Source of the DNA: a virus | DNA length: 34,462 nt | Reading direction: 5' to 3' (one strand) | Virus genome (UHGV): UHGV-1637875 | Shown here: positions 13,452 to 34,435 of the stretch, in pieces | Layout: each line of letters begins with the position of its first letter | Position numbering within the stretch: position 1 is the stretch's first letter | Program-made: the position numbers and the translations under genes | The notes under the pieces: model-generated | Told to the model about the DNA's origin: nothing | Seen by the model: only the letters and a program-made list of their open reading frames with translations | The model's database searches: none

Positions 13452-13469
13452 AGGGGCTATCAAGCCCCT
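13452..13469 (+). promoter_or_regulatory. Intercistronic GC-rich hairpin
   Basis: aggggct-atca-agcccct, a perfect 7-bp stem with no U-run, between two small ORFs. Confidence 0.4.
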
Positions 13470-14157: not shown

Positions 14158-14190
14158 TTTACAACAGGCTATGGTAATGATACTATAGCC
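14158..14190 (+). promoter_or_regulatory. Early promoter with -10 box nested in a stem-loop (PeSL-type)
   Basis: gTTTACA (14157-14163), 17-bp spacer, TACTAT (14181-14186); dyad ggctatggta (14167-14176) / tactatagcc (14181-14190). Confidence 0.6.
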
Positions 14191-14212
14191 TTATCAACTT
14201 GAGGAGAATAAA

Positions 14213-17133: not shown

Positions 17134-19388
17134 TTAATGTTATCAAAAGTAGTGGTGTTTCTCAAAGCTTTGACCCGCAAAAAATTATTAAAGTTTTATC
17201 TTGGGCAGCTGAAGGAACATCTGTAGATCCTTATGAATTATATGAAAATATTAAATCATATCTCCGTGATGGAATGACCACTGATGACATTCAAACCATT
17301 GTAATTAAGGCTGCTGCGAATTCTATTTCAGTTGAAGAGCCTGATTATCAATATGTAGCTGCGCGCTGTTTAATGTTTGCTCTTCGTAAGCATGTTTATG
17401 GACAATATGAACCACGTTCATTTATTGACCATATTTCTTACTGCGTAAATGAAGGTAAATATGACCCTGAATTGTTGTCAAAATATTCAGCAGAAGAAAT
17501 TACATTTTTAGAATCAAAAATTAAGCACGAGCGGGATATGGAATTTACTTATTCCGGGGCGATGCAATTAAAAGAAAAATATCTAGTTAAAGATAAAACC
17601 ACCGGTCAAATTTATGAAACTCCACAGTTTGCATTTATGACTATTGGAATGGCATTGCATCAAGATGAACCTGTTGATAGATTAAAACATGTTATCCGTT
17701 TTTATGAAGCGGTATCTACTCGACAGATTTCATTACCAACTCCTATTATGGCTGGTTGCCGTACTCCAACTCGGCAGTTTAGTTCATGCGTTGTTATTGA
17801 GGCAGGTGATTCATTAAAGTCTATCAATAAGGCTTCCGCTTCAATTGTTGAATATATCTCTAAACGCGCTGGAATTGGTATTAACGTTGGTATGATTCGT
17901 GCTGAAGGTTCTAAGATTGGCATGGGTGAAGTACGCCATACTGGTGTTATTCCTTTTTGGAAACATTTTCAGACTGCTGTTAAATCATGCTCACAGGGTG
18001 GAATTCGTGGCGGCGCTGCTACTGCTTATTATCCTATTTGGCATTTGGAAGTTGAAAATCTTCTTGTTTTGAAAAATAACAAAGGCGTAGAAGAAAACCG
18101 CATTCGTCATATGGATTATGGTGTTCAACTGAATGATTTGATGATGGAACGTTTTGGAAAGAACGATTACATTACTTTGTTCAGTCCCCATGAAATGGGC
18201 GGAGAGCTTTATTATTCTTATTTTAAAGACCAAGACCGTTTCCGTGAATTATACGAAGCAGCAGAAAAAGACCCTAATATTCGTAAAAAGCGTATTAAAG
18301 CCCGTGAACTATTTGAATTGCTCATGACTGAACGCTCAGGAACAGCAAGGATTTATGTACAGTTCATTGATAATACGAATAACTATACTCCGTTTATTCG
18401 TGAAAAGGCACCTATTCGTCAGAGTAACTTGTGCTGTGAAATTGCTATTCCAACAAATGATGTGAATAGTCCTGATGCTGAAATTGGATTGTGTACTCTC
18501 TCTGCATTCGTACTGGATAATTTTGACTGGCAAGACCAAGATAAAATTAATGAATTGGCAGAAGTCCAGGTTCGTGCTCTTGATAATCTTTTGGATTACC
18601 AAGGATATCCAGTTCCTGAAGCAGAAAAAGCTAAAAAGCGTCGTAACCTCGGTGTAGGTGTTACTAACTATGCAGCTTGGTTGGCAAGTAACTTTGCTTC
18701 TTATGAAGATGCTAACGATTTAACACATGAACTATTTGAGAGATTACAGTATGGACTCATTAAAGCATCCATTAAACTCGCCAAAGAAAAAGGACCTTGT
18801 GAATATTATTCAGACACTCGTTGGTCTCGAGGCGAATTACCTATCGACTGGTACAATAAAAAGATTGACCAAATCGCAGCTCCAAAATACGTTTGTGACT
18901 GGTCGTCGCTGCGGGAAGACCTTAAGCTCTTTGGCATCCGTAATAGCACATTATCAGCACTTATGCCATGTGAGTCATCTTCCCAAGTTTCTAACAGTAC
19001 AAACGGTATCGAGCCTCCACGTGGACCAGTCTCTGTTAAAGAATCAAAAGAGGGCTCCTTTAATCAAGTCGTGCCCAATATTGAGCATAACATAGACCTC
19101 TATGATTATACATGGAAATTAGCTAAGAAAGGTAATAAACCTTATCTTACGCAGGTAGCTATTATGCTGAAATGGGTATGTCAATCAGCTTCAGCGAATA
19201 CATATTATGACCCACAGATTTTTCCAAAAGGAAAGGTTCCAATGTCAATAATGATTGATGATATGCTATACGGATGGTATTATGGCATTAAAAATTTCTA
19301 TTATCATAATACCCGCGATGGTTCTGGTACTGATGATTATGAAATAGAAACTCCAAAAGCTGAAGATTGCGCAGCGTGTAAATTGTAA
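17124..19388 (+). CDS. nrdA: Aerobic ribonucleotide reductase large subunit
   Basis: 754 aa, the same length as T4 NrdA; N-terminal ATP-cone and a conserved NLCCEI active-site region; GAGGA ribosome-binding site. Confidence 0.95.
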   Translation: MQLINVIKSSGVSQSFDPQKIIKVLSWAAEGTSVDPYELYENIKSYLRDGMTTDDIQTIVIKAAANSISVEEPDYQYVAARCLMFALRKHVYGQYEPRSFIDHISYCVNEGKYDPELLSKYSAEEITFLESKIKHERDMEFTYSGAMQLKEKYLVKDKTTGQIYETPQFAFMTIGMALHQDEPVDRLKHVIRFYEAVSTRQISLPTPIMAGCRTPTRQFSSCVVIEAGDSLKSINKASASIVEYISKRAGIGINVGMIRAEGSKIGMGEVRHTGVIPFWKHFQTAVKSCSQGGIRGGAATAYYPIWHLEVENLLVLKNNKGVEENRIRHMDYGVQLNDLMMERFGKNDYITLFSPHEMGGELYYSYFKDQDRFRELYEAAEKDPNIRKKRIKARELFELLMTERSGTARIYVQFIDNTNNYTPFIREKAPIRQSNLCCEIAIPTNDVNSPDAEIGLCTLSAFVLDNFDWQDQDKINELAEVQVRALDNLLDYQGYPVPEAEKAKKRRNLGVGVTNYAAWLASNFASYEDANDLTHELFERLQYGLIKASIKLAKEKGPCEYYSDTRWSRGELPIDWYNKKIDQIAAPKYVCDWSSLREDLKLFGIRNSTLSALMPCESSSQVSNSTNGIEPPRGPVSVKESKEGSFNQVVPNIEHNIDLYDYTWKLAKKGNKPYLTQVAIMLKWVCQSASANTYYDPQIFPKGKVPMSIMIDDMLYGWYYGIKNFYYHNTRDGSGTDDYEIETPKAEDCAACKL

Positions 19389-20029
19389 TGAATTATCAAA
19401 AAATCTATAATGACCTAATTTCCCGAGCTCAGGCTCGGGAACCTTTATCCGAATATAAAGAGACTCATCATATAATCCCTAGATGTATGGGAGGTTCTGA
19501 TGATAAAGAAAATTTAGTTGAATTAACAGGTAGAGAGCATTTTATAGCTCATTGGCTTTTATGCAAAATATATGACACCCCAGGATTAAAGAAAGCTTTT
19601 GGTTTAATGTGCTTGACTGGTAAAAATCGCTCATATAAAATTTCTTCTCAACTATACGAATTAGGTAGACGACGTTTATCTGAAGCTGCTGTAGGACGTG
19701 AAGTTTCTATAGAAACCAGGGAAAAGATAAGTAGAGCTCTTAAAGGAAGGAAATTTACCAAAGAGCATTTAGCTCGCATGAGAAAACCTAAAACCGAAGA
19801 AGCTAAAAAGAATATAGCTGCTGCTAAAGTCGGCGTGCTTAATCCGATGTATGGTACAATCTCTCCGACAAGAGATGTTCCTCATACTAAAGAAACTCGT
19901 GATTTGATTTCTTTGAGAACTAAGCAAAGTATAGAGTATCCGCCTTGTCCGCATTGTGGCAAGAAAGTTAATAAAGGCAATGCTCTAAGATGGCATTATG
20001 ATAAATGTAAATTTAAGGATTCTAAATGA
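19388..20029 (+). CDS. mobE: HNH-family homing endonuclease (MobE-like) inserted between nrdA and nrdB
   Basis: 213 aa; HNH motif HHIIPRCMGGSDDKENLVELTGREHFIAHW; C-terminal CPHCGK zinc-finger-like motif; start overlaps the nrdA stop (TAATG) and stop overlaps the nrdB start (ATGA). Confidence 0.65.
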   Translation: MNYQKIYNDLISRAQAREPLSEYKETHHIIPRCMGGSDDKENLVELTGREHFIAHWLLCKIYDTPGLKKAFGLMCLTGKNRSYKISSQLYELGRRRLSEAAVGREVSIETREKISRALKGRKFTKEHLARMRKPKTEEAKKNIAAAKVGVLNPMYGTISPTRDVPHTKETRDLISLRTKQSIEYPPCPHCGKKVNKGNALRWHYDKCKFKDSK

Positions 20030-21204
20030 GTACAGTTTTTAATACATCCCCTGTTAATATTTTGACTGAGCCGATGTTTTTTGGTTCTGGATTGGGTTTA
20101 GCTCGATATGATATTCAACGGCATAGAGTATTTGAAGAACTTATTGAGAAATCTTTATCATTTTTCTGGCGTCCTGAAGAAGTAAACTTAATGATGGATG
20201 CTGCACAGTTTAATAAGCTTCCTCAATATCAGCAGAATATTTTTACTAATAATCTGAAGTATCAATCACTTCTAGATAGCATTCAGGGTCGTGCACCGTC
20301 TGCTGTACTTATGTCATTGATTTCAGACCCAAGCCTTGATACATGGGTTGCTACATGGACTTTTAGTGAAACCATTCACAGTCGTTCATACACTCATATT
20401 ATGCGAAATCTTTATACTGATCCGTCAAAGGTATTTGATGAGATTGTATTAGATAAAGCTATCATGAAACGTGCTGAATCTATTGGTCGTTATTATGATG
20501 ATGTTCTGGACAAGACACGTATTTGGGAAAACGCCAAAGAAAACTTTAGTTATTTTGCTGAAAATGAATATGATTTAGAAGCATATTCAAACAGTCTCAC
20601 TCATTTGGAAGAATGTAAACGAGACCTGATGAAGTCGCTTTATCTCTGTCTGCACGTTATCAATGCTCTGGAAGCTATTCGTTTTTATGTATCCTTTGCA
20701 TGTACTTTCAACTTCCATAAGAACATGGAAATCATGGAAGGTAATGCGAAGATTATGAAATTTATTGCACGTGATGAGCAGCTTCATCTTAAAGGTACAC
20801 AATATATTATTCGTCAACTTCAATCCGGTACTGATGGTGATGAATGGGTTAAAATTGCCAAAGAGTGTGAACAAGAAGCAGTTGATATTTTCATGGAAGT
20901 TAACCGCCAAGAAAAAGATTGGGCAGTTCATTTATTTAAAGATGGCGATGTTCCTGGATTAAATACAAATAGCATGTGGAGCTTTATTGATTACTTAACT
21001 GTATCTCGTATGAAACAGTGTGGTCTTCCATGCCCGATTACCGATGCTCCGGTTAAACATCCATATCCTTGGATTCGTGAATACCTTAATTCTGATAATG
21101 TTCAATCCGCGCCGCAAGAAGTAGAACTGTCATCTTATCTTGTTGCACAGATTGATAATGATGTTGATGATAAAGTTATGATGAGTTTAAAAAAATATTT
21201 TTAA
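20026..21204 (+). CDS. nrdB: Aerobic ribonucleotide reductase small subunit, intronless
   Basis: 392-aa uninterrupted ORF, MSTVFNTSPVNILTEPMFFGSGLGLARYDIQRH...; no intron. Confidence 0.95.
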   Translation: MSTVFNTSPVNILTEPMFFGSGLGLARYDIQRHRVFEELIEKSLSFFWRPEEVNLMMDAAQFNKLPQYQQNIFTNNLKYQSLLDSIQGRAPSAVLMSLISDPSLDTWVATWTFSETIHSRSYTHIMRNLYTDPSKVFDEIVLDKAIMKRAESIGRYYDDVLDKTRIWENAKENFSYFAENEYDLEAYSNSLTHLEECKRDLMKSLYLCLHVINALEAIRFYVSFACTFNFHKNMEIMEGNAKIMKFIARDEQLHLKGTQYIIRQLQSGTDGDEWVKIAKECEQEAVDIFMEVNRQEKDWAVHLFKDGDVPGLNTNSMWSFIDYLTVSRMKQCGLPCPITDAPVKHPYPWIREYLNSDNVQSAPQEVELSSYLVAQIDNDVDDKVMMSLKKYF

Positions 21205-21231
21205 GGAGTGGGCCGCAAGGCCCATTTTATT

Positions 21232-21234
<3 letters not shown>
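21204..21234 (+). promoter_or_regulatory. Split translation-initiation region for denA: Shine-Dalgarno, hairpin, AUG
   Basis: AGGAG (21204-21208), then hairpin tgggcc-gcaa-ggccca (21209-21224, 6-bp stem with GNRA loop), then 7 nt, then ATG at 21232. Linear SD-to-AUG distance is 23 nt; it becomes 7 nt if the hairpin forms. It may also attenuate read-through from nrdB. Confidence 0.45.
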
Positions 21235-22819
<1,585 letters not shown>

Positions 22820-26126: not shown

Positions 26127-26164
26127 TTTACTTTACGGTAGAGTTGTGATATTATGGCTCTACC
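26127..26164 (+). promoter_or_regulatory. Early promoter with -10 box nested in a stem-loop (PeSL-type)
   Basis: gTTTACT (26126-26132), 17-bp spacer, TATTAT (26150-26155); dyad ggtagag (26137-26143) / ctctacc (26158-26164). Confidence 0.6.
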
Positions 26165-29611: not shown

Positions 29612-29616
29612 GTTGA

Positions 29617-29640
29617 GGACTCCTTCGGGAGTCCTTTTTT
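29617..29640 (+). terminator. Rho-independent terminator (UUCG tetraloop)
   Basis: ggactcc-ttcg-ggagtcc followed by tttttt. Confidence 0.8.
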
Positions 29641-30495: not shown

Positions 30496-30511
30496 AGGGG
30501 CTTCGGCCCCT
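30496..30511 (+). promoter_or_regulatory. Intercistronic UUCG-tetraloop hairpin
   Basis: aggggc-ttcg-gcccct; no U-run; sits between a stop codon and the GAGGA/ATG of the next ORF. Confidence 0.45.
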
Positions 30512-34228: not shown

Positions 34229-34413
34229 AAGCTTACTTAGAAACAATTGTCATTGCTCAAAAAGAAGGTGGAGATGTTTCTACTTCTGTATCACAAGTCA
34301 TTCTCGAATTTGTAGATGCATATGCTTACAATAAATTTACAGAAACATTTGATGCCTATGAAAAAGGACCAAAGTTTGAAATATATCGTGCTCTCTTACC
34401 ACTAGATTACTAA
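34225..34413 (+). CDS. Hypothetical protein downstream of ligase
   Basis: 62-aa ORF with a GAGGT ribosome-binding site; ATGA overlap with the ligase stop; followed by a hairpin. Confidence 0.6.
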   Translation: MKAYLETIVIAQKEGGDVSTSVSQVILEFVDAYAYNKFTETFDAYEKGPKFEIYRALLPLDY

Positions 34414-34435
34414 AGGCCTTCGGGCCTTTAATTTT
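34413..34435 (+). terminator. Hairpin terminator (UUCG tetraloop) at the end of the early ligase transcription unit
   Basis: aaggcc-ttcg-ggcctt followed by taatttt; could terminate in both directions. Confidence 0.55.

Follow-up and report, generated by a model that had tools for sequence, protein, structure and literature searches.

How do ribosomes reach the start of denA, the gene for endonuclease II, where it follows nrdB? The question is raised by a 34,462-nt virus genome, UHGV-1637875 (this whole stretch is called the window below), in which a stable hairpin stands between the denA ATG at position 21232 and the Shine-Dalgarno (SD) sequence upstream of it. Hairpin-bridged ribosome binding sites are textbook curiosities with very few natural cases, of which genes 38 and 25 of phage T4 are the standard ones. 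We consider it probable, by analogy with gene 38, that the nrdB-denA junction is likewise a split, hairpin-bridged translation initiation region, from which denA is translated starting at ATG 21232.

A hairpin between the SD and the start codon of denA

Three properties define a split site as we use the term: an SD more than about 15 nt upstream of the start with none at the normal distance, a stable hairpin that lies wholly between SD and AUG and leaves a spacing of 5-11 nt when folded, and conservation of the arrangement with compensatory changes in the stem. The junction, which reads ...tttTAAGGAGtgggccgcaaggcccattttattATGaaa in the window, has the first two. The AAGGAG of denA overlaps the nrdB stop codon, the hairpin follows at once, and the tail UUUUAUU leads from the hairpin to the ATG. 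The distance from the 3′ end of the SD to the A of the ATG is exactly 23 nt and falls to 7 nt without the 16-nt hairpin. Nothing in the 7-nt tail resembles an SD, and AAGGAG is the only SD-like element upstream of the denA ATG. A first-pass annotation of this DNA had given the coordinates of AGGAG (21204-21208), the 23-nt distance, the hairpin and a folded spacing of about 7 nt, and all of its numbers are correct to the base.

Folded in isolation, the hairpin has an energy of -11.6 kcal/mol, and its core pairs reach probabilities of 0.99-1.0 when a 141-nt context is folded. In a 76-nt context the fold has a z score of -3.31, with none of 200 dinucleotide shuffles (0/200) folding as well. Elsewhere in the window, the hairpins at 13452, 14166, 26137 and 30496 also precede gene starts and show the usual order of stop, hairpin, SD and start, with the SD downstream of the hairpin and the ATG 15-25 nt downstream. 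The denA junction is the only case in the window with the SD upstream of the hairpin, and from the four others we conclude that its layout is not the default.

We take ATG 21232 as the start of denA because the tag of the PDB 2WSH construct is followed by MKEIATEY, whose first residue corresponds to this codon, because Met1 of this ATG is nearly invariant and opens the alignment of denA proteins from 13 genera, because the gap between the nrdB stop and the denA ATG (26-32 nt among relatives) changes in steps that are not multiples of 3, and because an in-frame GTG further upstream, at 21208, has no SD. The ATG start, which gives 136 aa, is the one used by the crystallised enzyme (PDB 2WSH) and by most other records. 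T4 is identical to the window over the segment that runs from the SD through the hairpin to the ATG, and the conclusions reached here therefore apply to T4.

In the mechanism we propose, nrdB and denA would share a polycistronic mRNA, and translation of denA would begin at ATG 21232; an AAGGAG 23 nt from the ATG would be too far away to work if the RNA were linear. The very stable 16-nt tetraloop hairpin would stay folded on the 30S subunit and loop out the excess, leaving about 7 nt between SD and AUG, a distance at which SDs usually work. Ribosomes that end nrdB translation 4 nt before the stem would melt the hairpin, and its subsequent refolding would couple denA initiation to the translation of nrdB. 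In a secondary role, the hairpin and its U-tract may terminate some transcripts or protect the 3′ ends of nrdB mRNA.

Covariation among relatives and a parallel at T4 gene 38

We collected the corresponding junctions from 36 IMG/VR contigs and from 15 annotated phages that belong to different genera; 22 distinct junctions, representing about 10 Tevenvirinae genera, were aligned to score covariation and spacing. The boundaries of SD, hairpin and tail were set by explicit segmentation checked against the sequences; duplex energies in 9-nt windows bled into the stem and were uninformative. The same architecture is present in every Tevenvirinae-type genome examined except Citrobacter phage CkP1: the nrdB TAA overlaps or abuts AAGG(A/G), a GC-rich hairpin begins after 0-2 nt (4 in Salmonella phage S16), and an SD-free, U-rich tail of 6-10 nt leads to the ATG. 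Its carriers include Tequatrovirus, Mosigvirus, Kagamiyamavirus, Gelderlandvirus, Winklervirus, Gaprivervirus, Kanagawavirus, Karamvirus (ZX13) and Marfavirus, as well as several Klebsiella phages and IMG/VR lineages.

The stem is conserved as a structure across these genomes. Of the alignment cells for the six core pairs, 94.7% hold standard pairs, and four of the six pairs show changes on both sides (19 cells), as illustrated by the variants UGGGCC/GGCCCA, GGGAC/GUCCC, GGGAGAC/GUCUCCC, GGGGC/GCCCC and GAGGGC/GCCCUC. The covariation score of the core stem is 0.436, against a mean of 0.173 for shuffled columns, with 0/500 column shuffles reaching it and slid controls at 0.236 or below. Nearly all genera have a UUCG loop, the T4-like group has GCAA, and UUAG, UUUG and CUUGA occur as rare forms. 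Two different extra-stable tetraloops, UUCG and GCAA, thus occupy the same position, which argues that selection acts on a compact, stable hairpin and not on the loop sequence.

The SD and the folded spacing are conserved alongside the stem. AAGG(A/G) lies directly 5′ of the hairpin in 20/22 junctions, the remaining two having AGGAG and AAGAG, and it is kept while the sequences of stem and tail drift; the tail lacks an SD in every junction. Hairpins are 12-18 nt long, and SD and AUG lie 21-28 nt apart on the linear sequence (median 23.5); once the hairpin is taken out, an effective spacing of 6-10 nt is left in 21 of the 22 junctions (median 8). The tail behind the hairpin measures 6-10 nt in all 22.

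The genomes that depart from the architecture are informative. In CkP1, a Karamvirus, an ordinary SD, GAGG, comes behind the hairpin, then 6 nt and the ATG, and in Krischvirus (RB49-like phages) a GAAA-loop hairpin lies 26 nt before the start and is followed by GAGGAAAGGA, as in MIZ4. From these exceptions we conclude that a start close behind the hairpin goes with an SD in front of it, and an SD behind the hairpin with a start further away. In Aeromonas phages and one IMG/VR lineage there is no hairpin, and denA overlaps or abuts the upstream stop (ATGA or TAATG).

The closest known parallel comes from T4 itself. In genes 38 and 25, RNA structure between SD and AUG shortens an extended spacing to a functional distance (from 22 to 5 nt in gene 38 and from 27 to 11 nt in gene 25), and destabilising mutations lower initiation in both cases (PMC3014915). 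The gene 25 arrangement was confirmed by reporter assays and dimethyl sulfate (DMS) probing (PMC3014915, summarising Nivinskas 1999 and Malys & Nivinskas 2009). This review bears out the statement in the first-pass annotation that both genes have structure-assisted initiation, and it does not mention denA. Our searches of the accessible literature found no earlier description of a split site at denA and no reporter-fusion, DMS-probing or toeprinting data for denA; the classic T4 sources lie outside this coverage, and an earlier mention in them is possible.

The gene 38 site reads gcaUAAGGAGAGGGGCUUCGGCCCUUCUAAAUAUG, which resolves into UAAGGAG-AGGGGCUUCGGCCCUU-CUAAAU-AUG and is nearly identical in build to the denA junction: the upstream stop overlaps AAGGAG, immediately after it comes a GC-rich stem capped by an extra-stable tetraloop, and a short SD-free tail leads to the AUG. 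The linear spacing is 22 nt at gene 38 and 23 nt at denA, and the folded spacing about 5 and 7 nt. In sequence, the gene 38 site is very similar to the denA junction of Karamvirus ZX13. The two sites differ in their loops (UUCG in gene 38 and in denA of other genera, GCAA in T4-type denA), in their tails (that of gene 38, UUCUAAAU, is not terminator-like, whereas UUUUAUU at denA is) and in their setting, gene 38 being a late gene downstream of gene 37 and denA a prereplicative gene downstream of nrdB. Gene 25, at the gene 26-25 junction, resembles denA in having its SD far upstream, at 27 nt, and brought to 11 nt by a hairpin, an arrangement kept among close T-even phages. Its SD, however, is GAGG, and its hairpin is AU-rich and weak (-6.4 kcal/mol) and lacks a special tetraloop, while that of denA is far more stable and, unlike that of gene 25, also terminator-like. 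Whereas the gene 25 start overlaps the gene 26 stop, the denA start lies behind the nrdB stop. For genes 38 and 25 the bridge is backed by mutations (PMC3014915), whereas denA is likened to them from sequence and computed folds; that ribosomes use the folded geometry at denA as well would follow by analogy.

Searches of T4 led to the same sites. A covariance model built from denA junctions only, run against all of T4, had the gene 37/38 junction as its best non-self match (33.9 bits, E = 1.2e-3). We also ran a rule-based scan of T4 over every ATG, GTG or TTG that opens an open reading frame (ORF) of at least 25 codons on either strand, asking for a hairpin that folds at -5 kcal/mol or better, has an SD no more than 3 nt from its 5′ side and has an SD-free tail of 4-11 nt behind it. 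It returned five matches, namely denA (-14.9), gene 38 (-13.0), gene 25 (-6.4) and two weak ones at non-annotated starts. Strong matches, with hairpins of -10 kcal/mol or better, number two in T4 (denA and gene 38), against 0.025 per genome in 40 dinucleotide shuffles. As a separate observation, the second-best non-self match of the covariance model in T4 lies at the 39.1/39 junction on the minus strand (L056 5369-5410; 30.9 bits, E = 0.005), where UAAAUAAAAGGCC-UUCG-GGCCUUUAGCUUUAUG forms a UUCG hairpin just behind the 39.1 stop with an AUG 7 nt further on; there is no clear AAGGA, and the annotated start of gene 39 lies another 44 nt on.

Structure-assisted initiation of denA, as suggested in the first-pass annotation, thus draws good support from the covariation, the conserved AAGG(A/G), the narrow folded spacing, the lack of an alternative SD and the match to gene 38. 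If the split site is real, it would be the third in T4-type phages, covarying across about 10 genera and placed before a toxic nuclease of host DNA, and the design would be a recurrent solution in compact phage genomes. With stems that vary naturally in length (12-18 nt), the relatives would make it possible to test what length of RNA the 30S subunit can loop out. Such sites will be mis-scored by gene finders and ribosome binding site calculators built on linear spacing, and the denA start is probably misplaced in some automated annotations of relatives, as in RefSeq T4. The case would also be a warning that not every junction hairpin with a U-tract should be annotated as a terminator.

Other possible roles for the hairpin

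Several points weigh against a bridged start at denA. The support for it is comparative and anatomical and proceeds by analogy with gene 38. The hairpin with its UUUUAUU fits an intrinsic terminator and has been so labelled by other annotators. In the free RNA, GGAG is partly paired with the U-tract, and the structure could therefore also dampen initiation. Ribosomes could reinitiate at denA after terminating on nrdB 27 nt upstream, in which case no bridge would be needed. Salmonella phage S16 has only AAGG, with an effective spacing of 14 nt, and in Krischvirus AAGG also precedes a hairpin that is unable to bridge, so that finding AAGG in front of a hairpin does not alone prove its use as an SD.

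The most serious competitor holds that the hairpin is mainly an intrinsic terminator or 3′-end stabiliser of nrdB transcripts, that denA is translated weakly, by reinitiation or by S1-dependent loading of ribosomes on the U-rich tail, and that AAGGA is incidental. We judge this unlikely, although the hairpin has much of what such a terminator needs: a GC-rich stem (5/6 pairs are G-C) capped by a stable tetraloop and followed immediately by a U-tract, UUUUAUUA, with 6 U in 8 nt. GenBank records MK373779 and MK373775 label the homologous hairpins as terminators (-15.3 and -12.4), and most relatives retain a U-rich tail, with 2-7 U in the 8 nt behind the stem. T4-type genomes carry such hairpins at many gene junctions, and for a similar one in T4 mobE (19420-19441 in the window) mapping gave 30-50% termination (PMC2790892). 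Like these T4-type terminators, the denA hairpin is GC-rich, has a tetraloop and a short U-tract and sits at a gene boundary; unlike them, it lies 4 nt past a translated stop, and a start codon lacking its own SD comes within 7 nt of it.

This position tells against a terminator, since the stem begins where a translating ribosome represses termination: in vivo, terminators a few bp past the end of a gene are almost completely repressed (PMC4824070). The denA hairpin would be covered by the ribosome terminating on nrdB, an argument that holds only under close coupling of transcription and translation. In a consensus scan nothing promoter-like turned up between nrdB and denA, which leaves denA dependent on read-through from nrdB. 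In several genera the U-tract is poor (2-4 U of 8), yet the hairpin and AAGGA are kept, and the validated bridge of gene 38 has the same build with a poor U-tract. A terminator also leaves unexplained why the SD sits upstream of the hairpin only at denA. A consensus terminator scan of the window did not list the denA hairpin, probably owing to the extension of the stem into the U-tract by G-T pairs and not to the absence of the feature, and we found no 3′-end mapping of T4 transcripts at the nrdB-denA junction in the searchable literature.

Termination does not exclude the split site. Attenuation of nrdB read-through by the hairpin, a secondary suggestion of the first-pass annotation, is plausible, given the terminator label in other annotations, and probably weak, because the hairpin lies 4 nt past the stop and the consensus scan gave no promoter-like site ahead of denA. 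A partial, translation-sensitive attenuator is plausible at this junction and would be compatible with bridging, but its effect cannot be strong. Tentatively, we can also imagine that the two functions form a dual-purpose, ribosome-gated switch, although we would not yet bet on it. The hairpin would act as a terminator when nrdB is not translated to its stop; an arriving ribosome would suppress termination, and the refolded hairpin would present SD and AUG to that same 30S subunit, tying the toxic endonuclease II obligatorily to nrdB translation. The series of stop overlapping AAGGAG, tetraloop hairpin, 7-8 nt and AUG would then be a reusable cassette deployed at least twice, at 37/38 and at nrdB/denA.

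A different proposal reverses the sign of the structure, with an extended stem that includes GGAG:UUUU and long-range pairing over the AUG keeping translation of the toxic endonuclease low. The computed folds lend it something, in that the minimum free energy structure lengthens the stem to 10 pairs through weak G-U and A-U pairing of GGAG with the UUUU tract, and in that the probability of being unpaired, in the 141-nt fold, is 0.03-0.6 for the SD bases and 0.01 for the AUG. Among relatives the outer helix can form in 72% of cells. These pairs are mostly G-U, however, and change on both sides in only one of the four, in a single sequence, and we rejected the outer helix as a conserved structure; that it can pair at all is explained by a U tract lying opposite a purine tract. 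At denA the SD can be freed for 4.4 kcal/mol, below the 5.9 kcal/mol of the gene 38 site, which is translated, while unfolding the whole site costs 23 kcal/mol at denA vs 19 at gene 38. Removing the structure cannot improve the site either, as the SD would be 23 nt from the AUG without the core hairpin. We regard an inhibitory structure as quite improbable.

The GGAG at 21205-21208 also led us to consider a target of the RegB endoribonuclease, which recognises about 11 single-stranded nt beginning at GGA (PMC1702504). As a main explanation for the junction it was rejected: the next 8 nt lie in the stem, at the pair probabilities given above, and GGAG is not conserved, most relatives having GGAA or GGAU. 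The hairpin might incidentally shield the denA SD from RegB.

Very improbable is initiation at the in-frame GTG 21208, which would yield 144 aa and make the hairpin coding sequence: the frame is open from this codon and NC_000866.4 annotates denA from it (137517..137951, 435 nt, starting 24 nt upstream of ATG 21232), but the GTG overlaps the last base of AGGAG, which leaves no spacer, it is absent outside T4-like phages, the upstream ATG and GTG codons of other genera stand in differing frames at varying gap lengths, and the compensatory stem changes mark conservation of RNA and not of protein. In phage fDHCT2 (OR427838), denA is likewise annotated from an ATG directly behind AAGGA. Both this start and that of RefSeq T4 are probably longest-ORF artefacts.

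Further hairpins and genes in the window

The features discussed here are collected in the table, together with the other hairpins of the window.

Table. Features of the nrdB-denA junction and further hairpins, in window coordinates
Feature	Position	Strand	Basis or remark
nrdB	20026..21204	+	392 aa, uninterrupted ORF; ribonucleotide reductase beta subunit in matching phage records
nrdB stop TAA	21202-21204	+	sequence; overlaps denA SD
SD AAGGAG of denA	21203-21208 (AGGAG 21204-21208)	+	shares last two bases of nrdB stop
In-frame GTG	21208-21210	+	denA start in RefSeq T4 (144-aa product); rejected as start
Hairpin UGGGCC-GCAA-GGCCCA	21209-21224 (16 nt)	+	6-bp stem, 5 G-C pairs; between SD and start codon
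Stem 5′ arm tgggcc	21209-21214	+	sequence
GNRA tetraloop gcaa	21215-21218	+	sequence
Stem 3′ arm ggccca	21219-21224	+	sequence
U-rich spacer UUUUAUU	21225-21231	+	7-nt effective SD-AUG spacer; possible terminator U-tract
denA start ATG	21232-21234	+	sequence
denA (endonuclease II, GIY-YIG nuclease)	21232..21642	+	136 aa, ATG 21232; match to PDB 2WSH endonuclease II, E = 1.5e-87
Intergenic tetraloop hairpins before gene starts	13452-13469, 14166-14191, 26137-26164, 30496-30511	+	each followed by a GAGG-type SD
9-bp hairpin TTCCCGAGC-TCAG-GCTCGGGAA	19420-19441		about 30 nt inside mobE-like ORF
UUCG-loop hairpin, terminator-like	29615-29636	+	followed by TTTTATTTTCC
UUCG-loop hairpin, terminator-like	34411-34430	+	followed by TATAAATA, late-promoter-like motif

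By sequence match, the 801 bases around the junction are 98-99.9% identical to many Tequatrovirus (T4-like) genomes, the best match being Shigella phage ESh25 at 99.9%, with T4 at 98%. On the minus strand nothing notable was found at the hairpin, whose reverse complement has no U-tract; the sole ORF overlapping it there encodes 41 aa (21201-21326) and has no annotated gene in the matching records. No Rfam family reaches its gathering threshold anywhere in the window, and near the junction only chance-level matches below threshold occur, such as L20_leader at 25 bits vs a gathering score of 58.7.

Locally, the genes run nrdA, mobE, nrdB, denA, rnlA. Where T4 nrdB is split by a group I intron carrying I-TevIII, the nrdB of the window is one unbroken ORF of 392 aa; as no group I intron is detected in the window at the Rfam gathering threshold either, we conclude that this is a phage without the nrdB intron. 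Between nrdA and nrdB, the interval 19388-20029 holds a single 213-aa ORF of the HNH type, mobE-like and overlapping the nrdB start; its T4 equivalent comprises mobE (426 nt) and nrdB.1 (252 nt). Within this ORF, the hairpin at 19420-19441 matches in position and form the weak intrinsic terminator mapped in T4 mobE (PMC2790892).

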